A DNA stretch of 60,445 bases, counting the filler, from Hausera hauseri (Eukaryota): NCBI GenBank assembly GCA_046269625.1. It is 12 parts of 12 records of this genome, joined end to end, with 100 filler letters (N's around TTAATTAATTAA, not from the genome) between each part and the next. Parts side by side here need not be neighbours in the genome. Positions count along the whole stretch, not along the records: positions 4,989 to 10,955 come from JBJURY010161088.1; 11 more parts are not named here. One strand, written 5' to 3'. Below, piece after piece: positions 4,989-56,071 of this stretch. The notes beneath the pieces were generated by a model, which was not told the origin of the DNA, did no database searches, and saw only the letters and a list, made by a program, of their open reading frames with translations. A program made the translations under genes and the position numbers. Numbering within the stretch: the first letter of the stretch is position 1; each line of letters begins with the position of its first letter.

Positions 4989-6913
4989 TACTTGTTATGT
5001 TTCATAATTTGCGTGGATATGATCTTCATCATATCTTAAAACATGAAGTAAGTAAATTCAATAGTTGGGAATTAAGTATTATTCCGCAAACAACAGAGAA
5101 GTTCCTAGCAATGAATACAATGATAAGATGTTCGGGTAAAAAGTCAGTTACTATTTGATTTCTAGACACTTTGCAGTTTCTACCGACTTCACTTAAGACT
5201 TTGGCTTCAAACTTAGACAACTACCCATTGACAGAATCGGCTTTTCCATCTGACATTATTAAGGAAAAGGAATTTTTCCATACACTGCTGCCAAATCTTT
5301 CAGTGACTTGCAGTCTATTTCTGAATTACCACCGAAATGGGATGGAGTTAGTGACAGTGATTATGAAGAAGCACAATTGGTTTGGTCAAAATACAGTTGC
5401 AATTGTCTGTTAGATTATATGTTGGTATATATGAAGCTCGACGTATACTTGTTAAGTGATGTCTTTAAACGGTTTAGACAGGAGGTTAAGTTGCAGGATG
5501 GTTTAGAAGCCGTTAACTTTGTCTTAATTCCAGGTTTAAGTTAATCAACAGCACTGTAAACCAGTCCTTGTAAGATTGAGCTTATACAGGATACTGAGGT
5601 GTATCATTTCTTTCAGTCGGGTATTTGCGGTGGCATGACTTTTGTAAATAAGCATAGGATTGTCTCTGATGAAAGCACCAGTCTTTTGTATATAGATGTA
5701 AATGATTTATATGGTTGGGCTTTATCACAACCTTTGCCATTTGCGAATTTGACTTGGATTTACCATGAGGACGTCTTGACCAGTCTGATCTAACAATTAC
5801 CTTTTATTGACTGTGTTAAGGAAAAACGAGGCTTAGTCTTTGAAGTTGACATAAGCATTCCAGCCGACAAGCATGATAAGTTGGACCAACTGCCTTTAGC
5901 CCCAATCAACCAATGTCCACCAGGTTCTAAAGTTAAGAAACTGTTGCTGACACATGAGCGTAAGTCCTACTATGTTGTTTACTATCGGCTCTTACAGTTG
6001 TACATTGAGTTAGGCGCTGTAGTTGAAAAGGTACATCAGGCTGTTGAGTTTGATCAATGCTGTCTTTAAGGATTACATCGATCTAAACACTGCTAAGAGG
6101 GCTAAAGCGAAACATCCTTTTGAAAAGCTTTTTTAAGCTCAAGAACAATAGCTTATATGGAAAAACGGTTGAAAACCTCTTAAAAAGGTCAAATTTGAGA
6201 CTGTGTAATAATGCTAGAAAGCTTATTACATATGCTAGTAAGGCCCAGTTTAAAGAGAGCATTCTTATAACCGATGATCTAATTGCTGTTCTTCTCGATA
6301 AAGACATGGTCACCTTAGATAGACTCTCACACATTGGTCAGGACGTACTTGATCTTTCTAAGTTGAGAATGTATGAGCTGAATTACATTGAGTTGGAGTC
6401 ATATAGGCAACAGTTCAATTGTGACCTTAATGTTGTTGCCGGTGACACTGACAGTTTCTTTCTTGAGTGTCGTGGAGTTGATTTGCGGTCTCAACTCTTA
6501 CCAGCAATGATAGCCAATGAACAGTTGGACACTTCGAACTATGACAAGAGTGATCCACTGTACTCGACTCGTTTCGCATCTGTAATTGGCAAATTTAAAG
6601 ACGAAAGTAAGGGCTGCGTTGAATATCAAGAGGCAATTTTCCTACGACCGAAATCCTATGCCCTCAAAACCCAAACCAAACCAGTGCTCAAATGCAAGGG
6701 CATCAATCTCAAACAGTCCGATTTGCAGTTCAGCAACTACTTACAAGCATATGAAACCGGTTGCAGCACCATGGTGGATCAGGAACAAATTGGAACCAAA
6801 AACCATCAGCTGATGACAATCCATTCGAGAAAAAGGCGTTGAATTCATTCGATGACAAACGCCAGTGGATAACAAAGAACAAAAGTGTCGCATATGGATA
6901 TCATTGTATATGA
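4989..6913 (+). pseudogene. Polinton pPolB (second subfamily), degenerate, 5'-truncated by spacer
   Basis: VMFHNLRGYD, FLDTLQFL, YMKLDVYLL, GGMTFV..YIDVNDLYGWALS, FKLKNNSLYGKT, GDTDS, GKFKDE, LRPKSY, DDKR..AYGY*. Confidence 0.92.
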
Positions 6914-7419
6914 TTATTGTATATATTTCATGTTAATAAATATTTCATTCTTTACCGTGTTTGTTTTATTAACAAGGTTTTTTAATCATTGTAAATACGT
7001 TTTGGTATTTTGATTATTTACAACGTTTTGTGAAGATTTATAACATAAAAAGGTTAAACACATTTATTATCGAACAAACCTATATAAAAATATTACAACT
7101 GCACCAGTAAGTGTACTACACACAAGTAAAACATTTCTATGTCTCTTTCCAAATTCATCTCTAATATTTGTCATTAATATCGATCGAACAACAAGTTCTA
7201 CATAGTCTTCTTTTGATAAAAAGTATTCATTCTCCAGTTCATTTAGAAATTGGACACAGTCTATTTTCCCACTGCATATTTCATATGTGAGCCTTTTAAT
7301 TTCAGCTTCTAAATCTATTTTGTAATTCTAATTATATAAATAATTTCGGATAACACATTAAAAATCATACCATTTGTCGTACTATTCCTTGAAACAACGC
7401 CATGCTATTAGCCCACCTT

Positions 7420-7773
7420 TATTTATACCCGACCACCAAAATTAAAACAAAATTTTTTGACACAAACCGACCAATCAGATTGCACCAAAATTAAGTGGGG
7501 GTGGGAATAGTGAAACCACGAACAGATCAGCTTTGTTCACAACCAAAATTTAAACAAAATTTTTGGCGCCAAATTCAAAATTTTACACGTACCTAAAAAC
7601 CATACAGTACGCTTAATTGTGTGTATCCACTTTGTGACTATGTGTCTCCTATCTCCGCCCTATTAACCGTGCATGTGTGTATCGTTTTTTCTACCCCATG
7701 ACTCATCCCAAAGCACATCAATTTTCCTTCCCTGGGGTGGGGGTCTGATCCAGTGCACTCCTCTCCTACTACT
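7420..7773 (+). mobile_element. Polinton terminal (TIR) region ending in ...CCTACTACT
   Basis: More GC-rich non-coding tract after pPolB, ending in the canonical Polinton 3' terminus ACTACT at 7768-7773, then an abrupt switch to an unrelated ORF. Confidence 0.75.
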
Positions 7774-9226
7774 TGCTAGAAGCCATGAATGATGAACGAT
7801 TTAAATTTCCTAAATTGATATCAGCAAGTCAACGAACGAGGCTTATAAAAGATACTTATGCCTCACTACGATGCGAACATGAGTGGAAGCCTAGGAACCC
7901 TACACAAAATGTGATGTCAGACAGCAATCCAAGAATTTTAATACAAAAATTCCGAACAGGATTTAGCGAATACCCAATATATAGACAAGTGGAGCCTCAA
8001 GGACACAACATATTTCAAGTGACCGTTCACAACAGCTCAGTTAGAACGGCCTGCAACCAACAAAACCCATCGACCAGCCAAGCTCGAAACGAAATGGAAA
8101 TAGTCCCCAAAAGAGCAACAGAAAGTCTGAAACCGAGTATCAGAGAAGTTCCAAGAGGACAAAAGACAAAAACTTCTTTTTTGGAGTACATTAGGAAGAA
8201 GAGAAGTAAAATCAGTAAGAACCTGAGCGAAGAAATGAAACCATCTTCTGGCCGTCTCACGCTCAACGAACAAGCAAACGGATGTAAGGAGGAACCCAAA
8301 AGGAAGGAAGCCGAAAATTACGACGAGATCCAGATGAGAACTGCCGATACAAAGCCCCGTAAGACAGAAGTAAACGTTCTTCGGAAGAATTGGGAAGAAG
8401 ATGAACCGATCATATTCACGGAATTTGGCCAAGTAAAGGAATATACCAGAATGCTCGTCATGGCCAAATATTACAGCAAAGGCAAGATCAAGGAAGCCAT
8501 ATTCTACGTATCCACTGTTCCTAGAAGAATCGTAAGTGTGAATGGATACGCTCGGGAGGACATAACCATTGGCAAATACTTAGCCCCAATATTACAGTCG
8601 AAAAACGGTACCAATAGATTAACCATTCCGGAAGATAACCAAGTCCGAATACAATTAAAAAGGTAATATAAGAAAACCGGAATACCACATTTAGACCAAC
8701 AAGATATCGTTGAATGGACGTTCGTCACCGTGTCAGATGACCCCAAGAAAAGCTCTATAGACCCAAAACAAAAACGACTACATGGATACTTATATCAAGA
8801 TAAAAAGGGACTAGTATTTGAACGAATAGAAGTCGACGAAAACCTCGTAGACATAGACGGAGGGGAGAAAGAAGAGTGCCCTGTTTGTGATGCCAATCTT
8901 TACCAAGGACTCGTGCTGTTGGATAATAAAGACTGTACCCACAAGTACTGCAGGTACTGTTTAGAAACATGGACCCTGAAAATGGGAAGACGACCTGCCC
9001 CGTATGTAGGACTGAGGCCACAAGACTGAGATACTACGCCAATGGGGAAAATAAAAAGATAGTGGAGATATTGTCCCAAAACCCACTACATCCTACCAAT
9101 TTGATCCGCAATCACCGCAAGAAGAATCGGATTCGGAAGCGGACCTACGTGGACGAATGAACCGGTTACGCGGCACCTCTTCTGACGCAATGGGCACATT
9201 CCAGAGTGCCGTTCAGGGAGGAGAAA
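7774..9226 (+). pseudogene. 3'-terminal ORF of an LTR retrotransposon ending in a C3HC4 RING finger (one in-frame stop at 8664-8666, frameshift near 8990)
   Basis: 7773..8666 and 8730..9029 are in frame; CPVC..CTHKYCRYC..W..TCPVCR; followed by PPT and LTR; homologous to 55785..56071. Confidence 0.75.
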
Positions 9227-9927
9227 TGTTATAGAGAGCTGAGAATCACAAATTGTATATATGTACAGTAAATTAAAAACGAAAGTGAAACTGAAAGCGA
9301 AAACCGAAAGAGAAACAATACATCATTGCAATTAAAATCAATTAATTTCTTGGATTATTCAGAGAAAAGACAGAAAATTTGCTAGAATTCCGCACACTAA
9401 ATGTCGAGAAAATAACTGCTACCTACGATTAATCAATATGAAATTGAGAAAAATTAGAAAGAATTAGAAATCTCTATTACCAATCCCGTATACAAATTAC
9501 TATATAAACGCAATGAAACAGTGTACAGTGTAGAACTGCATAGAATTCTAAACGTTTTATGAATCGATTGATACGGAAAAGGACTTGATTGTTATTTGAA
9601 TTTGCACCGTGAAAATTATTCGCTGTTCATTATCGGTATTGATTATTTATGTTATTAATAAAGTTTCTTTTTAAAGTTATTATAGTTTTTCGTCGCTCCT
9701 TACGAGGGACTTGTACTACACTAAAGATTAAAATCGTATTCAACTTTATAGTTAAGTCGAGAATTCCTAAATTACGCAAGGCACAGCACGCAGTATAAGC
9801 ATCATAAACTAGTGCAAATATTATAACGAGAACGGTAGGACTTATCTGCTTATAATTATTGTTCAAATTTAAGTTTCGATATTGTTATAGTTGGGTGTTG
9901 AATAGGGCCCACCTTCAACTACTAACA
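9227..9927 (+). mobile_element. 3' LTR (~700 bp) preceded by PPT (agggaggagaaa)
   Basis: TGTTA...TAACA termini; purine tract immediately 5'; end (gggcccacc...taaca) resembles the end of the LTR at 55125; no PBS follows. Confidence 0.75.
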
Positions 9928-9938
9928 TTTCGAATGAA

Positions 9939-10385
9939 ATGCTCGAAAAAGAACTAGGAAGCATACCGGTTAAGATTTTGGCAAAAAGTAATAAAATTCT
10001 ATTTTACGCTGAAGAAACGTTAAATCAAGACGTGAAAATTGAATGTCGCACCCTGCACACCAATCAAATTATAATCCTAAGAAAGAATAGTCAGAAAACC
10101 GAATGCAAATCATTACGACCGCAGCATAACAACATAATCCGAATCAACGCGAAAGGTAAAAACATTAAGACTATTACAGTACGAACTCTTGACAACAAAA
10201 ATGAAGTAATGAAATATAAAGATCTTATTACTCAAAATGCACTTACCACAAAGGGTTCCATTGAGCCAAACAATTTACCGATAATAGCTATATTTAGTTT
10301 GTCCGTTTTCGTTCTTGTCACATTAACGGCCATGATTTTCCTAGTTTCCAAAAATTGTAATAAACGCGGTGAAAATCGAAAGTGA
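9939..10385 (+). CDS. Hypothetical protein (possibly partial) with C-terminal transmembrane helix
   Basis: Open 148-aa frame; IIAIFSLSVFVLVTLTAMIFLV followed by a basic tail. Confidence 0.35.
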   Translation: MLEKELGSIPVKILAKSNKILFYAEETLNQDVKIECRTLHTNQIIILRKNSQKTECKSLRPQHNNIIRINAKGKNIKTITVRTLDNKNEVMKYKDLITQNALTTKGSIEPNNLPIIAIFSLSVFVLVTLTAMIFLVSKNCNKRGENRK

Positions 10386-11055
10386 CATAAACGGGTAAAA
10401 AGGTACCGAGACGAATTTTATGATAGCATAACCTGACAATTATAGATCAGTTTATCCTCTCATCAGACAGAGAAAATGTTTTGTTTCAAAACGATGATCT
10501 GTCTTAAGATTGACCTTTATTTTTATTTTAGCAGCGTAAGTATGGCCGAAAAGACGAAGAATTCAGCCATAAACTCCAATCGTAACATCGAAGATTTCCT
10601 ACAACAACATGTAGCAATCATCAAGCCACTACCTAAAAGTTTATATCGCCAAATTGGAGAGAATCTGAAAAACAAAACTTGCGCCGAAATTGATCAGGAA
10701 AGTAAAATACCAAATGGATTGAAATGTGGTTTTGAGGAAAATCGACTGATTGGGCTATACGCAATGCGAAGCCCTAGAGATGCACGAGCATACCTCTTGA
10801 GAGATATGATTCCATATGAACCGACACAAGAGCAATTGTACATACATATCGCTGATGGAGAAATTCAATGCAGGATCCTAGGACAATTCTGGAGCACACA
10901 AAATGGACAACAATGGAAATTTAGCACTTATGAATTATGTTGCTATAGTCTTATGNNNNNNNNNNNNNNNNNNNNNNNNNNNNNNNNNNNNNNNNNNNNT
11001 TAATTAATTAANNNNNNNNNNNNNNNNNNNNNNNNNNNNNNNNNNNNNNNNNNNN

Positions 11056-26188: not shown

Positions 26189-26277
26189 GGACTGCAATAG
26201 CTATGTCTACACGGCAGTGTAGTTTTGTCTTGCGTTATTTCCTCGAGGCAGATAGGACATTTTTCCGGTTCCATCAT
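26189..26277 (-). CDS. RING finger protein N-terminal part (cut by spacer)
   Basis: Manual translation MMEPEKCPICLEEITQDKTTLPCRHSYCS; absent from the ORF track. Confidence 0.8.
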
Positions 26278-26489
26278 ACTTTCACTTCTATTTGCGGTTC
26301 CATTTCCTTAAATGGTAACAATTTATTCCAAATATTTTCATATTTATTAATAATAATAATCATAATTCCCAATAAAACGTCTTCTTGTCGTATCATAATT
26401 GTTCACAATTTCTCGATTTTACCCATCAGCGCACATAGAAATGTAATACTAAATTTCACAAGGTACAATAATCAATTTAATTACACATT

Positions 26490-26735
26490 TTACAAATTCA
26501 ACCATCTATCAATCTCTTCTAAGTCATTCCCTGACAAGGAGCAAATAGGGCATACCAGAAAACAATTTGAGTCCATGATCATAATGCTTATGTTGACTTC
26601 CTCCCCGCAGTATGCGCACTCGAACTGATCTTCCCGATGCTTCATCTTTTCGACGAGATAACATAGCGGACATGAGTTTCTTCTTCCATTGTTAACTTCC
26701 GGAGATTCTTTGCATATAACGCATCCTAAAATCAA
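26490..26735 (-). CDS. Small Cys-rich protein with four CxxC pairs (putative double zinc ribbon)
   Basis: CVIC, CPLC, CAYC, CPIC; start codon uncertain. Confidence 0.55.
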   Translation of the reverse strand: MILGCVICKESPEVNNGRRNSCPLCYLVEKMKHREDQFECAYCGEEVNISIMIMDSNCFLVCPICSLSGNDLEEIDRWLNL

Positions 26736-26891
26736 TATTAATTCATTTAATTCTTCTATTTATTCTTTTCATGCTCCTATTGCTATTATAATCGGTTTAT
26801 TGTTTTTCATTGTTTATTATTAACTCTATCAGACTACCTATATTTCATTATCACATCTATATTTAAGGCCAACATTCAAAGTTTTATTTCG

Positions 26892-27194
26892 TTAAAGAGG
26901 CATATACACGATTCTGTTAGGTCCATACACATACAGATCGTGCTGATCTTCTGGCATTACTTCCTCGTCTTCTTCTTCTGTTCCACTTTCTTCTTCATCC
27001 GGGATTACCACTACGGTGGTTCCCCAGCACTGATAACATGTGGTTCTCCTTCTGCAAAAAGGACATGTTTGGTTTTTCATGAGCCATTTATCGGCGCAAC
27101 GAGTGCACATTATGTGAGTGCATCTCAGCAAAGCATATTTTCTCCCGAGGGGTCCATAGCATATGTTGCAAGGTGTTGTTCCTGAAATTGCCAA
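26892..27194 (-). CDS. C3HC4 RING finger protein with acidic tail (putative E3 ligase)
   Basis: CNIC..LRCTHIMCTRCADKW..TCPFCR; no in-frame ATG, preceded by a tttag acceptor-like sequence. Confidence 0.85.
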   Translation of the reverse strand: MAISGTTPCNICYGPLGRKYALLRCTHIMCTRCADKWLMKNQTCPFCRRRTTCYQCWGTTVVVIPDEEESGTEEEDEEVMPEDQHDLYVYGPNRIVYMPL

Positions 27195-27278
27195 AACTAA
27201 AATTCACTATGATGCTAAATATATTTTACAATAGATACTTTATTCCTTAAGTCCAAATCCTTATTACCATTATGTGCT

Positions 27279-48917: not shown

Positions 48918-49951
48918 TAGTTCTCCTGATTTCTGTATCCATTTTGCAGTTATTCATTATTATTTTATGATATAATTCCGTTATTCCGACTTGTTTTTTA
49001 TAGTAGAAGTAATCGTCTCTATTTTTCAGGTAGTCCTCAATCCGAACATCTTGCGTTTCCAATTTGTAGGTCCTCGCGTTTATCTCCGTTTCGGCTACAA
49101 AGAAGGCTTTATAGTTCGTGGCCAACATTACTACATCGCTGCGAGTTATCTCTTTTTTTATAAATTTTAATCCATGCGGATCTGAGATTAATATAGTCGG
49201 TGTAGGGTGTTCCGATACATCTTCGCTTGTTCTCTAATTAGTCTCCGATTTGTCTATATATCGTTTTCCGGTAGTTTCATTAAACTTTAACTCTTTAATT
49301 TTGATAAAGTTACGCTTCTTCCAGAGGGAGGTTCCCATATTATAACCGAACTTCTAAAAGCACAAGTTCCGTCTTGTAAATGGCATTTCTGATTCACAGT
49401 GTATAACTTAGTGACACTATGGAACATTACCTTTTGTGACCGCATTTTCGATTCGTAGAAATCCACAACTACCACGTTTGGTTCTAATCCTTTTCCAGTA
49501 TCGTATTCTGCTCCACTACAATGTCCGCTATGCATATCCAGCCTTCAAGCTACTACTTTGTATGCTATGATGATCTTTCCTGGTTGCATTTCTAGTTGCA
49601 TACTGTCCCATTTTCTTTAGCTTGTTTGCAATATTGGCGTTCTGAATTCATTGGAATTAGCGGAGTAGTTGGCTTAATTAGGGAGGAATGTCCGTGTATT
49701 AGGCCACAGTGGAAGATACTACGGGATCGTCTCAACATGCACTCCATTCCGTCTAACGATATCAATTCTTGTTGTTGATACAGGAAATAACTTTTCTCTC
49801 TCGTTTCCAATTTGTGCGGTCTGGCGTCCTCGCATACTTCCAGGTCCATTAAGGAATATCTCTGTCCTAGTTTAAACTTATCGCAATCATAGACGGTTGC
49901 CGCACTTATATGCTTTATTAGCATCATTAAGGTAAGTAAGCTAATTAGCCA
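48918..49951 (-). pseudogene. env: Chuvirus-like envelope glycoprotein N-half with internal signal peptide (cut by spacer)
   Basis: WLISLLTLMMLIKHISA|ATVYDC..YSLMDLEVC..YQQ..EC..FHCG..HSSLIKPTTP; GHCSG..Y; CHLQDGTC..IIW; LYHKIIMNNCK. Confidence 0.85.
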
Positions 49952-52900
49952 ATTTGATTCATTTTTCCGACCTCCAACGTCTAACGTCGTCAAGCTACGT
50001 AACATATAGTCGAGTTTATTGTTGTTTCGTTTGTCTTCTTCCTTGTCAAATAGTCTCGCCCAATTTACTTTGCAAGGCATTCTTCTTGCTGCTCTCCGTG
50101 CTAAGCTTATAGCCCGATTGATTTCATTCTCTCGATTAGGATTTATTTTGATGACTAAGTATAGCAATACTTTTCTCAATTCTTCATTCGTGTTTTCTAC
50201 CATGGTTTTTCGATTACCGATTCATCAGTTAAATTACTTTTCGATAGTTTTAAACGCGAACTTCGCATCATTTTGGCTGCATCGAAAATTATCTTTTCTT
50301 TATCATCTAACACATCCCCTTGAAAACTAGAATAATTCACAATTCATATTAAGTTTTTTATTAACTCGCCTAATTCCTCGTTATCTGGGCTAAGAGTCGG
50401 AATCGACATTTGTCTCAATTCTCTAATTAATTCTCCGTTATAATCCACTTCACCTCCCACTTTTCTAAGTCTGCCTACTGGGCGTTTCGGTCTTGGACCT
50501 TTAGTGGTTGTTTCACTCAGTGGTACTAAATTTATGTCGTATTGTTCTTTATCTTCGTCCGTTTGCAAACACTCAAAATATAGTGCAGCATCTCGAACTC
50601 CCATAATTTGTCCTACTCATTGTTCTGTTTTGGCTTTACGTGTAGCTTCTTCTTTTGACTGTTCGTTAGTTATTACTACTACTATCCGATTTATTTCGTC
50701 GGGAATAATCCCGACATCTATTAGTTGTTTTAAGTCATCGAGTATTCTACCTCTAAAATAAAATCTGTAGTTTAACTCGTTCATTTCACCATTGTTTATT
50801 AGCCATTCTCTTATATCCTTTACGTAGGAATGTGTAGTCAGCTCGCATTCTTTTTCGTTCATCCATTTGGATGACAACATCACTTTCATCGCTATCTCAG
50901 GTTTATTCCTTAAAATTTTAGCATACTTCCTTATCGAAAGCTTCGGCACCGTGCTATAAATCGTGTTTTCACTGGACAATTTAGTTAAAGTTGGAATAAG
51001 TTGTCTTAATTCGTTTTCAGTAATATTTACATCAATTAATTCAATCAAATCCCTTTCAGTTAGCCCTGAATCTAATAGTATTTCCACATTGAATCTACTG
51101 GTTTTTGGACATGTTTCTATTTCGCTTAGCTGTACTGGAGTCATAAGCTTTCCAGCAAGTATTTCGTCAAAGTATGCATCCCATTCTGGCTCGTTACTGA
51201 CCTCGGGAAGTCCAGTGTCTATTTCACTTGTTTTTCTCTTTGTACAATTTCTCTAATTTCTTTCAATCTTCGTGGTATTTCCTTCATCTGCGTAGTCTGA
51301 AAACCTACTCCATTTCCACAGGCATACTGAATCATTTTCAGTAATTTGCCCAATTTGTTCGGGCCAACCAGCCCTTTGTGATGATAATCTGTCAATTCAA
51401 GAATTACATCTTTTTGCCATCTTTGAACAAATTCTCGTTTATTCTTAATCTCTGATTCGGTGAAAGCATATTTGTTTCTATAGACTTCAAGCTCTTTTTT
51501 TATTTCATCTAACCTTGTCGCTCTTCGTTTCGTTTTGATACATGTTTCTTCTACTTTCTGTATCTTGGGCATCAGTTGCTTCATTTGCTCATTACTGATT
51601 TCTGCCATTTCCACTAATAAATAGCTCATTTATAACCTTTGAATCAGGGTCTATCGCATCGGACAATTTCTTTATAAACTTGTGTTCCTGAAAGCTAAAA
51701 TGTGCGTCATTTCCGATTTTTATCAACTTGGTATGGAAATTCTGGTCTGATCCGGCCATCCATTCTTGAGATTTGTGTATAAACCTTATTGCATTTGTTA
51801 ACGTATCCCAATATTCTGGACAAATATCCAAGATTCCAATATCTGGTACAGAAATTTTGTCGATTGGTTTCCCGGTTAAATATTGAATCCCTTCTAGTCG
51901 GACATTCCTTAACTTGTAATTTACATCGTAAATCACATTTTCATTCTCCGTAAAATTTGTCTCTTCGATCAATTTGTAGATTTCCTCCATCATCGACGCT
52001 TCTTCTTCCTTTTTTAAAAATTTTAGTCGTCGTAGCGCTTCAAATTGAGTACGGGTGTCTATGTCTATCCGTAACGTGGCTAAATTGTGTGCACTTTCCT
52101 CTAGTTGCTTCTTCACCGTTGGCTCGCTTTGCGGAAATTTTGTTTTACGATCTTCTACCAATTTGGTTAGTTGCGTTACTAATTCGGACCACTCGGACAG
52201 TTAATTTGCGATTACAGGTTTCGCCATTATGGCTTTATCTAGCATCTTACAGGCTTCTTCTAACTCATCGTCTGGTCCTTTTAGGAAATTCATAACTCGA
52301 CCGACATAACTAAACTCGTCCTTGTACTCGTCCAATTCTACGATACAAGTCTTTACTGTATATTGAGTATCCTCGTTGTTTTGGAACATAATTCTATTCA
52401 TCAAATTATAAATCTGTGCTCGTATTTTATTTTCTATTTTTACACGATCCTCTAAATTCGTATACCGTCTAGGTACAGCGAACGTGAGTTTAATCATCTC
52501 CATTAAGGGAGAAATATCTACTATGTATATACCCAATATTTCTAAGTCGATATTACTTCGATTACTGACCGGTTTTTCTCTCAGCCGGTAAGTCATTACA
52601 AGGCGAATTTTACCCATCATACGTTCTAAATTGCGAGCTGCTCGTTTTAATTTTGGGTTTACTTCTAAGGTGGACAGTAATGTCTGAGCTTTAGTGACTT
52701 TTATGTCGACTATATCTTTGTTTTTATTTCATCCTTCTGAAATTTCTACTCCGCTTTTAATCCATGATTCTAATTCCCGCTTCCATTTTAACAACATTTC
52801 GGTTGATACCTCTTCGGGTTGTTCCAAGTCAATTGCTTCTGCGAACTTTCCTTCGCTATTCAGTTTTAAATTTTTATATAACTTCTCAGCGAATTGTTGT

Positions 52901-53680
52901 TCTTTTCCATATATGTCTACTTGTTCGCTAATTTGTTTAAGCCTTTCTAGGTCAGATTGTAGTATTCCTGACTCATAACGTTTGTTTTTCAATTTTCTTA
53001 ATTCATTGGCGTTTTTCCATGAATGCCGGACTTTCCACTTCTTGGAATCGAAATCATCCGTATTCGTTGTTTCTTCCTCACTAATAGGAAGTGGGCAGAT
53101 CACGTTAATTTCTTTAGTTGACTCTACAGACTCTGCTACTCCGACAGGTGTGTGTAAACCAATTTCTGGTGTATCCAAACTATGTTCCGTGTTGCCTCCT
53201 ACAACGGCGTTCGGGTTTTCCGTTTCTTCAGTTTTCTCTCTGGTTATTTTAGAGCGTGAAAGGCTTTTACGTTTTGTTTTTAATGAAAAACTAAGGCCTC
53301 TATTTTTTTTCCTTTTCAATNNNNNNNNNNAAGTTAACTGCCGTCGATGTGCCTGGTTTAGCAGATGGCTTATTGCTTGTCGTAACACTCTTCTTCCGTG
53401 TTATATCAATTCGTTTTGGTGCTATCGTGTGTTCGTATTCAGTTTCCAGTTCTGTTAAGCCATTGTATACTTCTAATAATCTCAATTTATCTCCGTATTC
53501 TCTTCTAGACATTAGAATTTGTAAGTTAGTAGTGTCCGGCTAAGCGCCTAAGAATTTTCTCAAATCCTGTATATCGATGACAGTGCCTGTATCCCCAAGA
53601 ACGCCATACTTTGCTTCTAGCTTCTCATTGATTCTAATCATACTAGTCATATTTGACTCAGTAAATAAGACGCTACGTGG
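49952..53680 (-). pseudogene. ~3.7 kb interrupted coding tract between gag and env: unknown charged/helical domains plus a ubiquitin-like domain (~50670..50895)
   Basis: Chain of same-strand ORFs (219, 139, 189, 136, 175, 86 aa); IAMKVML..YVKDIREWL..YRFYFRGRILDDLKQLIDVGI..IVVVI fits a beta-grasp pattern; no RT, RNase H or integrase motifs. Confidence 0.7.
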
Positions 53681-54727
53681 GTTTGGACATGACCTTGAAA
53701 TATGTCCTTCTTTGCCACAAGTAAAACAAACTATATTTCCATTTCTGCCGACTCTCTATCGACCGTCTTTGTTTACTGGTGACTTAGATCTATTTATACT
53801 CTTACTATACTGATTTGGCAAACTTTGCACATTGTCGGAATTTTGTCTATTATAGTTATTTTGGTTATCACCGTTTTGGTTTGCGTAGTTTGAGCCTTTA
53901 AAATTTCCTCTATTTCTATCCCAGTTAGAGTCTGATCTGTTCGTATTTGTATAATTCCTACCTCTTCCATTTCTGGAACCGCCATTATTATTTCTATTCC
54001 TATCATTTCTGTTACCTGTAAATCGTCTGTCGTCTCTTCCACTATTATCATTGCGATTTCTATCGTTCCGGTCATTTCGATCATTATTCTTGTTATTTCT
54101 CTCGTTATGTCTAGCGTATCTATCTAGCGTCATTTCTAAGTCTTGAGCTAATCGCAACGTTCCTTCAAAAATCTCAGGTCTAGCTAAAATCAATTGTTTA
54201 ACTAAGTCTCGCGACCAAATACCATTTATTAGTTGCGTCGTTATTATAACATCTAAATCTGGTGGTGAGGCCTTCTCTGCGGCGTCACGTTCCGCGTCTG
54301 TCTTAGCTTTAGCTACGTTGGCTATCCTTAATGTGCTAATATAACTATTAGCAAGCTTCTTCAGCGCAAATGCGAACTGAGTTACTGATTCACCCTTTTG
54401 CTGTACTCTGTTCTGAAATGCCATAAGCTTTTGATGCGGCGTTACTGTCGACAACAGTTTGCGACTTAATGCTCCTACTAGGGAGGATTAAGATTTCTTC
54501 TCTCCGTTAGTGAGTTCACTATAGGCATCAGCGGCTAGATTTTTCAGATACAACGACAATCGCTTAATCATCACTTCAGGAGTCAGACTAGCACCTTCTG
54601 CGTGCAATTTATAAGTTCTAAAAAATTCGTTAAGCCCGTCCGGGTCTCCGTCATATGCCGGCATGTTTAGGGAATAGAACGTTAAGATGTCCAGCTTCTG
54701 CGCTACTGGTGAATTATCTGCTGCCAT
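53680..54727 (-). pseudogene. gag: Ty3/gypsy-type gag with Asn/Arg-rich tract and CCHC knuckle (53687..53728)
   Basis: MPAYDGDP..FF..Y..LYLKNLAADAY; RVQQKGESVTQFA..L..L; QLINGI; CFTCGKEGHISRSC. Confidence 0.9.
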
Positions 54728-55104
54728 ATTATTTACGTTATTTAACTCTAAATTTGCTTTATTTACTTTAGGTTTCTCGAGTTGAATTTTAAACTGTTTA
54801 TTTTGTGCAACGACGTCTAGTTTAATTCTATTTCCGGAATTTGAACGTTTATCTACTTTTTCTGTTTCTCTATATATGTTTCGACGTGTCTCACGTATAG
54901 GTAAATTAATTTTTAATATACAATTTACTTTCAACTTATCAATGTTTGTTCTCAAACGGTTTTTAAGTTATTTATCCACGTCAATAACCTTATATCCCAA
55001 ATCGATTTTAGTTTCCAAATATCCGATTAATTGATGTGAATGGCGCTGTTTGCCGATATGTAATTAATTAACTCTGAGAAAGTAAGGCTAGCAAGGTACA
55101 TACT

Positions 55105-55122
55105 GTCCTGCTTGGGTCGCCA
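55105..55122 (-). promoter_or_regulatory. PBS (tRNA-Arg-like)
   Basis: TGGCGACCCAAGCAGGAC two nt after the LTR end TAACA. Confidence 0.8.
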
Positions 55123-55124
55123 AA

Positions 55125-55784
55125 TGTTATATATTGGGGTGGCCCTTAAGTTTTACTTGAAATTTATTTGCTATGCAATTCGATCTACCGTTATCGCTTA
55201 GATAGAATGTACCTTAACGATTTTAAAATCAATGTGCGGTTATATGCGTGCGGTCCTGTGCCAACGGTTTTAAAATCTCTCTTTTAACTATATAATTTAA
55301 ATAGAACGTTAACCTTATTGTTGTCTAATCAACCTTAAGGGGCGATGGAAATTATCAGGAGATTTTAGAAAATAAAATCACGAAATACCTTTAATTCTTA
55401 CTATACGACACAGAAATCGATATCAGTTCAGAAAGTATGATCAACGATTAGTCAATAGTCAATTCAATTTGATCAGTGATCTTGCTGCTTCTCCAACAAA
55501 ATTTCTCATTTCTCACTTTCTTGCTTTACTTTATATAGCTTACGTCCCATAATTTATTTATTTCACAATTGATTTATATTCAATTCTTCCAGAATACTTT
55601 TCTAATAAAACTCAATTCTACGCATTAATAATTAAATTTTTTACTACTACTACATTGTGGCTTCCTTCCGATTTCAATAGACGGTATAAATAATAAATGA
55701 TAATACTAATTAAATATTTACATATGCACATCTAGTGTTGTCTCCGTTATGTCATTTTTTATATTATTGCCTCTGTTTGCAACA
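55125..55784 (-). mobile_element. LTR (660 bp) flanked by a PPT on one side and a PBS on the other
   Basis: TGTTG...TAACA on the minus strand; PPT agggaggaaaaa at 55785-55796. Confidence 0.85.
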
Positions 55785-56071
55785 TTTTTCCTCCCTGAGC
55801 GGCATCCTCGGATGTGCCCATTGCGTCAGGAGAGGTGCCGTGAGAACAAGGAGAACGCAAAATTTTTATGCGTCTTCTCAGACTGAGTCCATAACTGGCA
55901 CTAGGTTGGCTTTCTCTGGGATTCGTGTCCAATTCATAACTGTGGTAGGGTTTAATTCTAACTATTCTGGTATAGCTACCGTTTGAGTAGTACTTTAGGT
56001 CGGCAGCTTTAGCTCGGCACACTGGACATGTGGTCTTTGCACTATCCAACGTCCATTTCTCTAGGCAGTCT
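55759..56071 (-). CDS. C-terminal half of a RING finger ORF running through the PPT into the LTR
   Basis: DCLEKWTLDSAKTTCPVCRAKAADLKYYSNG matches CLETWT..GKTTCPVCRTEATRLRYYANG near 8960..9050. Confidence 0.8.

Follow-up and report, generated by a model that had tools for sequence, protein, structure and literature searches.

A selected pseudo-nuclease-RING gene carried by LTR elements in Hausera hauseri, with a predicted ubiquitin-ligase function

Sequence comparison points to a real, selected and element-borne gene that joins a pseudo-nuclease domain to a RING finger, for which a ubiquitin-ligase function is predicted and of which the copy at 7774-9231 is dead. The RING is tentatively assigned to the C-terminus of an accessory protein of about 815-870 residues ('ORF3'), encoded by the last gene of an env-bearing clade of Ty3/gypsy type. 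For this protein, as a putative nucleic-acid-binding E3 ligase, host silencing or sensing factors are proposed as the targets with a probability of roughly 45%, the data fitting host and element substrates alike.

The window, that is, the whole 60,445-nt stretch of DNA that was analysed, is composed of 12 contigs of 4.1-7.2 kb each, which are separated by spacers of the form N44-TTAATTAATTAA-N44, and the neighbours on the two sides of a spacer are unrelated. Its content is AT-rich and consists chiefly of decayed mobile elements, the types of which suggest an invertebrate; two tandem amino-acid transporter genes of the Aa_trans family on contig 9 (39919-41364 and 42020-43504, minus strand), intact and intronless, are the sole clear host genes within it. 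On contig 3 (11183-15573) a plus-strand RNase H and integrase face a remnant of a gB-type fusion glycoprotein on the minus strand, and a BEL/Pao-like gag region on contig 7 (30879-33214, minus strand) has a ubiquitin-like domain at its N-terminus (E 0.005) together with two CCCH zinc fingers upstream of the protease. Small zinc-finger frames are clustered on contig 6 (26191-27203, minus strand), with Pfam RINGs at 26895-27203 and 26191-26307 and a Cys-rich frame between these two (26493-26759); a Pfam match was obtained for 2 of the 34 frames scanned on this contig, and the cluster is possibly a remnant of a DNA virus or a Polinton. Decayed Polinton-type polymerases are present as four separate remnants, on contigs 1, 2, 5 and 12, those on contigs 5 and 12 being about 80% alike. 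The features of the two contigs that carry the RING gene are listed in Table 1.

Table 1. Positions of the RING gene copies and of neighbouring features, counted along the whole window
Feature	Position	Strand	Remarks
Contig 2	4989-10955		Carries the first RING copy (+)
Decayed Polinton/Maverick-type protein-primed DNA polymerase B	4989-6880	+	End approximate; inserted element, outside the LTR element
ACTACT, Polinton-type 3' end motif	7768-7773	+	Exactly where similarity to P0001 starts (residue 380)
Gene piece 1: exonuclease-like region (end), basic linker and beta-rich domain (start)	7774-8663	+	P0001 about 380-675
Break 1: in-frame stop TAA	8664-8666	+	Splits the frame into 305 + 120 codons
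Gene piece 2: remainder of conserved beta-rich domain	8667-8876	+	Versus P0001 601-735
C3HC4 RING finger	8877-9010	+	Pfam zf-C3HC4, E 3e-4 for the N-half
Break 2: shift of frame within the RING	between 8975 and 8981	+
Post-RING motif and tail	9011-9234	+	Frame runs through the purine tract and stops at 9232-9234 within the LTR
Break 3: another shift of frame	between about 9070 and 9082	+
Nucleic-acid-conserved block before LTR, candidate cis signal	9171-9230	+	Includes purine tract 9215-9226
LTR, 701 bp, TGTTA...TAACA	9227-9927	+	Contig 2
151-codon open frame	9930-10382	+	C-terminal hydrophobic helix, hydropathy 2.64 at residues 118-136; abuts the contig 2 LTR
Splice-acceptor-like tract	10514-10531	+	Before the second gene copy
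N-domain of second gene copy (P0001 57-182)	10542-10955	+	Cut by contig end; aligned with P0001 and P0004
Contig 11	48918-56071		Carries the second RING copy (-), cut by contig end at 56071
Decayed gB-type (Monjiviricetes-like) fusion glycoprotein	48919-49948	-	PF24664, E 2.5e-9 and 0.008; cut by contig end
Decayed helix-rich region between gag and env	49949-53400	-	Includes ubiquitin-like piece 50850-50620
Decayed gag, one CCHC knuckle	53626-54967	-	zf-CCHC, E 5e-8
Primer-binding site	55105-55122	-	Contig 11; starts TGG two bases after the LTR
Second LTR, 660 bp	55125-55784	-	Contig 11
RING C-half and tail of second family	55759-56071	-	Frame stays open until a stop within the LTR; truncated by the contig end

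A HMMER search over 1.84 billion representatives gave three matches, of which one was real: P0001, a protein of 870 aa from a 16.2-kb ENA contig (E 1e-74). The other two were discarded, P0002 as a low-complexity match in MucBP repeats and P0003 as a generic four-RING protein that is unrelated. In word-index protein searches none of 1742 candidates was confirmed with the window frame, and P0001 returned itself alone among 4979 candidates; at shorter lengths one of 1795 candidates was a relative, namely P0004, which is 333 aa long, spans the N-terminal part and is 53% identical to P0001. A scan of bacterial and archaeal genomes left none of 49 pattern matches confirmed. The sample behind the family consists of two database relatives and three fragments in the window. 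All four window pieces match P0001 in order, with 38-41% identity for the pieces on contig 2, and share its final residues at the LTR edge. By tblastn, P0001 380-870 corresponds to 7773-9231 across three frames, in order (38% identity over 444 columns for 7773-9002), P0001 57-182 to 10584-10955 downstream of the contig 2 LTR (41% over 126 aa, E 9e-29), and P0001 774-870 to 56067-55780 on the minus strand (45%, E 1e-17).

At 7774 the preliminary description had seen an ORF of more than 400 codons that ends in a RING just upstream of a polypurine tract and an LTR. The reading frame is not intact, being interrupted by one stop and two frame changes; the placement of the RING holds, since a C3HC4 finger is the last domain before the purine tract and the LTR (Table 1). 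Directly downstream of the RING lies the motif [LR]-x-Y-Y, and the frame, followed across the purine tract, has the same last residues as P0001. Because these residues belong to a frame that stops within the LTR, P0001 is also placed at the 3' end of an element. The copy on contig 2 is a dead fossil, and we infer that its 5' half was cut off by the insertion of a Polinton. The decayed polymerase on the same contig matches DNA_pol_B (E 0.0042 at 6087-6839) and has DNA similarity to the pPolB remnants of contigs 5 and 12. (ACT)2 is a Maverick end motif according to the available text of PMC8097293, and as ACTACT, a hexamer with 17 occurrences on the plus strand of the whole window, sits exactly where similarity to P0001 begins, the Polinton was presumably inserted into the RING gene at about codon 380. 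Two direct repeats of 26-35 nt and G-rich tracts are found in the presumed terminal region of the Polinton (7432-7573, plus strand). A frame with a D-x-E motif on contig 1 (3822-4385) is unrelated to P0001, and the derivation of the exonuclease-like domain from this DEDD-like Polinton frame was rejected as unsupported (best E 0.14).

The proposed recurrence of the RING beside a diverged LTR was confirmed on the minus strand of contig 11, where the C-half of the RING and its downstream motif are succeeded by the purine tract and then by an LTR of 660 bp, from 56067 to 55125 (tblastx 55% over 31 aa between the copies). The two LTRs are related in their 3' halves (local score 67, where 200 shuffles averaged 26 and reached at most 44) and are at shuffle level in their 5' halves (score 30 vs a mean of 33); being similar in the 3' halves only, they represent two families of one clade. 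That the RING is element-borne is borne out by the same gene end running across the purine tract in both families. The Ty3/gypsy features, namely a TG...CA LTR, a purine tract, a primer-binding site and a CCHC gag, are all present on contig 11, and the LTR and the purine tract are the only ones on contig 2. The primer-binding site of contig 11 is assumed to be tRNA-Arg-like, and no tRNA was found in the window. Contig 11 reads from gag through a weak ubiquitin-like piece (50850-50620, E 0.017) to env, with no pol between the LTR and the contig end inside env, and the gene order of the whole element is a reconstruction. A single LTR is shared by the RING-bearing 3' end and the gag-bearing 5' end, which means either tandem copies or an assembly collapse and, in both cases, one family.

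No primer-binding site follows the LTR of contig 2. For the 151-codon frame that abuts this LTR there was no Pfam match below E 0.03, no NCBIfam match and no PDB match below E 1, and a fibronectin-like reading of it was dropped for lack of database support; the frame probably represents an accessory gene from the upstream part of a sibling element. The second gene copy begins after a stop-bounded gap. The stretch before it (10514-10544, plus strand) has a pyrimidine tract with AG, four bases later GTAAGT, and then ATG, and near the equivalent place both database relatives, P0001 and P0004, show a run rich in Phe that closes with V-S; together these are a hint of a conserved splice signal or micro-exon, and the RING protein is probably expressed from a spliced RNA. 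In the simplest reading the contig 2 LTR was inserted into a sibling element, the alternatives being a join made in assembly and a tandem unit. That the stretch from the LTR to 10955 arose as a spliced subgenomic retrocopy was set aside because of the missing primer-binding site.

The domain order in P0001 is an N-domain without a family (57-235), a DEDDh exonuclease-like domain (match 246-331), a basic linker, a beta-rich domain without a family (601-735) and the C3HC4 RING (747-790). The RING is the sole match in a Pfam scan of P0001, which returned no B-box, and an Atlas search with residues 595-825 returned RING clusters alone and no family for 601-735. Two AlphaFold2 runs without alignments gave a pLDDT of 35.2 and 30.9. 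P0001 has no transmembrane stretch past residue 55 and has a basic patch (KKRRK/RKKR), features that fit a soluble, possibly nuclear protein. To the question of the preliminary description whether the ORF is fused to integrase, the answer is negative: there is no integrase in P0001 or P0004, no integrase-fused form appeared in the word-index searches, which covered lengths up to 1523 aa, or in a length-free HMMER search, and contigs 2 and 11 have no match to three pol pieces from other contigs. The RING gene is thus a separate ORF and not an integrase extension.

The exonuclease-like domain was recognized through matches that are weak overall (E 6e-4 to 4e-3) and give concordant leads. P0001 246-331 matches DnaQ (8h18, E 8e-4) and the PolC exonuclease (2p1j, E 0.003) among structures, and Pol III epsilon (E 0.004) and a dnaq model (E 0.011) in NCBIfam; Pfam RNase_T has no match in P0001 or P0004, and P0004 alone has no PDB match. 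In the Atlas, where a score under 0.9 counts as a lead only, the top three rows are RNase_T clusters (0.89, 0.88 and 0.87), and the ten best family-bearing matches all belong to one clan, a result that a third of shuffled proteins give as well. The alignment spans ExoI and ExoII. The D-x-E of ExoI aligns with A-x-N in both relatives, and the Asp of ExoII aligns with Met in P0001, the sole relative covering that site. The domain at 246-331 is read here, from its sequence, as a pseudo-exonuclease of DEDDh/DnaQ-like type that is devoid of the catalytic acids. A nuclease that is still active through an altered site, degrading RNA or cDNA to which the host would otherwise be alerted, with the RING in a secondary role, is the least probable of the readings considered. 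It could appeal to the acidic residues that sit a few positions past the ExoI strand, to the arenavirus nucleoprotein C-terminal family in the fourth row of the Atlas (0.87) and to the DEDD-type ORF3s described for rotifer LTR elements in the available text of PMC5408684; however, those ORF3s retain their catalytic residues according to the same text, and here Ala, Asn and Met stand in the alignment at three of the metal-binding acid positions.

The RING of P0001 matches PF00097 with 30.8 bits against a cut-off of 21 bits, and the RING on contig 2, split by a frame change, has all eight zinc ligands in C3HC4 spacing. The sequences CLE-x-W and CPVCR are kept in three of three copies and, with them, the Trp that follows the third Cys pair, the Pro and the linchpin Arg; we take these positions to be the E2-binding Trp/Pro and the linchpin Arg. 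RINGs can act as scaffolds without ligase activity. Judged from its sequence, the RING keeps residues typical of E2-binding RINGs, and the role of the linchpin Arg in RINGs has been described (PMC12259006, available text).

Selection was evaluated in one pair of window copies over 36 ungapped codons of the RING C-half and the following motif, the codons at the break being excluded. Between contigs 2 and 11, 22 residues are identical, and identity by codon position is 26/36, 27/36 and 10/36. The values are pN 0.24 and pS 0.97, and their ratio (0.24) ranged from 0.13 to 0.41 on resampling, with none of 2000 replicates at or above 1; as a pS of 0.97 is saturated, dS is not estimable. Saturated synonymous sites beside a pN of 0.24 indicate that selection acted on the protein, so that the earlier suggestion of protein-level selection is upheld as purifying selection on this half of the RING, and neutral evolution, named in the preliminary description as the contrary outcome, was not seen in this one pair of 36 codons. 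In the comparison with P0001 the RING region is the best-conserved segment (68%, 30/44), followed by the preceding domain (51%, 68/134), the part after the nuclease-like region (40%, 34/86) and the gap-rich linker (34%, 35/102).

These data bear on the very improbable reading that a captured host or viral gene has been riding neutrally, or that the arrangement is a mis-assembly of short contigs. All copies in the window are broken, the contigs are 4-7 kb long with internal sequence flanking a single LTR on both, and RING genes are common in the mobile DNA of this sample (two more Pfam RINGs on contig 6). Such a passenger or artefact is nevertheless hard to reconcile with a conserved protein at saturated synonymous sites, or with the fact that the gene ends in the same way, across the purine tract, in both LTR families as well as in a protein found independently in the databases; in addition, protein searches with P0001 found no cellular gene with the N-domain/pseudo-exonuclease/RING architecture.

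The sequence immediately before the LTR is conserved in a different manner. Positions 9171-9230 (plus strand) and 55840-55781 (minus strand) are 88% identical over 60 nt, and the 18 codons (54 nt) before the LTR have no synonymous difference at 13.3 sites and seven non-synonymous ones, third positions being identical in 18 of 18. The block is conserved as DNA or RNA and gives no evidence for the protein. A predicted hairpin keeps 20 of 20 pairs in both copies, one of them through a double change; the idea that a strong RNA hairpin precedes the purine tract was not supported, with z of -0.9 and -1.5 and 39/200 and 11/200 shuffles folding as well.

This block is relevant to an alternative that we consider unlikely, in which the protein would regulate the element's own RNA in the manner of CERV or retroviral Rev, its dead nuclease domain binding a signal of the genomic RNA for export, packaging or plus-strand priming, while the RING would be a scaffold or would turn over the element's own proteins. 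CERV of the C. elegans element Cer1 has an enzyme-like domain without catalytic residues, and the RING gene shares with it the same position and a probable spliced expression (PMC10309623, available text). The 54-nt block without synonymous change, which overlaps the gene end, and the 20 of 20 hairpin pairs would suit such a signal, but the hairpin is no more stable than shuffles, and reverse transcription would by itself account for conservation beside the purine tract. The RING keeps its E2-binding hallmarks, which also speaks against this alternative, and CERV, as described in the same text, differs from the RING gene in having a G-like and a Cys-loop M domain and neither a RING finger nor a DEDD fold.

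The arrangement on contig 11 resembles that of Burro, the giant gypsy-like elements of planarians, for which the available text of PMC6431247 gives gag, a helix-rich region, a ubiquitin/SUMO-like piece and a mononegavirus-like env ahead of pol, as well as BCL2, BIR, MATH and ankyrin domains that link the elements to host ubiquitin and apoptosis pathways. Contig 11 has gag, a helix-rich region, a candidate ubiquitin-like piece with a weak match and a gB-type env in a comparable succession, and is known here without pol. In contrast to Burro, with internal regions of up to 25 kb, a total of over 30 kb and hence multi-kb LTRs (PMC6431247, available text), the LTRs here are 660 and 701 bp long, and no match to BIR, MATH, ankyrin or Bcl-2 domains was obtained in the decayed pieces of contig 11 that were scanned. 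A 3' RING or exonuclease gene is absent from this description of Burro, the sole mention of RING in the available text being the name of an AIR1 motif match. BH3-like and BH1-like motifs were noticed, by eye only, after the ubiquitin-like piece and before env (49924-50850, minus strand); a Bcl-2 reading of 49924-50616 was abandoned, as neither Pfam nor PDB gave a Bcl-2 match.

An apoptosis and ubiquitin toolkit as proposed for Burro, in which the RING, like that of IAP or TRAF, would keep host cells alive and the nuclease-like domain would be incidental, is distinctly improbable. The ubiquitin-like piece and the BH-like motifs just before a mononegavirus-like env do follow the Burro order (PMC6431247, available text), but no BIR, MATH or Bcl-2 match was found in the pieces scanned, and P0001 and P0004 agree well in the nuclease-like domain itself, which indicates that this domain is not incidental. 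GAG-ENV-POL errantiviruses with an HSV/gB-type env, described from nematodes, bryozoans and flatworms in the main text of PMC13524379, are likewise similar to contig 11 in that gag is followed by a gB-type env and pol does not intervene; that main text mentions no RING, exonuclease or accessory gene, and the element tables of its supplement could hold relatives.

Two further systems are informative for the function of the protein. In the Juno and Vesta LTR elements of bdelloid rotifers, ORF3 encodes a DEDDy exonuclease with intact catalytic residues (PMC5408684, available text). The gene described here is similar as a third ORF of its own that closes an LTR element on the 3' side and probably has a DEDD/DnaQ fold, to which the matches are weak; unlike the DEDDy ORF3s, it is closest to DEDDh/DnaQ/RNase T, has the acids replaced and is fused to a C-terminal RING and two further domains. 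PML (TRIM19) has a C-terminal DEDDh/PXL domain that binds G-rich RNA and DNA (PMC10123124 and PMC13659232, available texts), and in PML-1, where the RING is combined with a pseudo-exonuclease, the pseudo-exonuclease binds G-rich RNA (PMC13659232, available text). PML and the present protein have in common that a single chain holds a RING as well as an exonuclease or pseudo-exonuclease of DEDDh type. PML is a restriction factor of jawed vertebrates with an N-terminal RING-B-box-coiled coil, whereas the present protein has the reverse order, lacks a B-box match and is encoded by a mobile element; the likeness is an analogy and not a homology.

On the preferred reading of a nucleic-acid-binding E3 ligase directed at host factors, for which PML-1 is a host precedent in uniting a RING with a nucleic-acid-binding pseudo-exonuclease (PMC13659232, available text), the dead nuclease domain would bind RNA or DNA ends and the RING would recruit a ubiquitin-loaded E2, so that the pseudo-exonuclease-RING protein would ubiquitinate proteins residing on the same nucleic acid. 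The targets would most likely be host factors of small-RNA silencing or nucleic-acid sensing that act on element transcripts or cDNA. The more specific proposal, that the LTR lineage possesses its own nucleic-acid-guided ubiquitin ligase and destroys the piRNA-pathway or innate-sensing proteins on its RNA or cDNA, is rather doubtful.

DEDD-type ORF3s in rotifer elements and ubiquitin and apoptosis domains in Burro were known already. A RING or E3 ORF3 in LTR elements was not found in the literature searched, which comprised few subscription journals and did not extend to Repbase notes, supplements or the original Burro paper; the word RING has no match in the available texts of PMC5408684, PMC13524379, PMC6338049, PMC7264820 and PMC11963269. 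The accessory genes described so far for env-bearing gypsy-like elements include exonucleases, esterases and apoptosis domains, to which an E3-type domain would be added. It is a long-standing question, for which there are few candidates, whether transposons of animals use their own proteins to fight host silencing, beyond evading it, and a conserved pseudo-nuclease-RING gene with an intact natural copy (P0001) is a directly testable candidate for counter-defence. If the proposed function is true, it would represent an active, element-encoded counter-defence as known from viruses, and would be the mirror image of host factors like PML.
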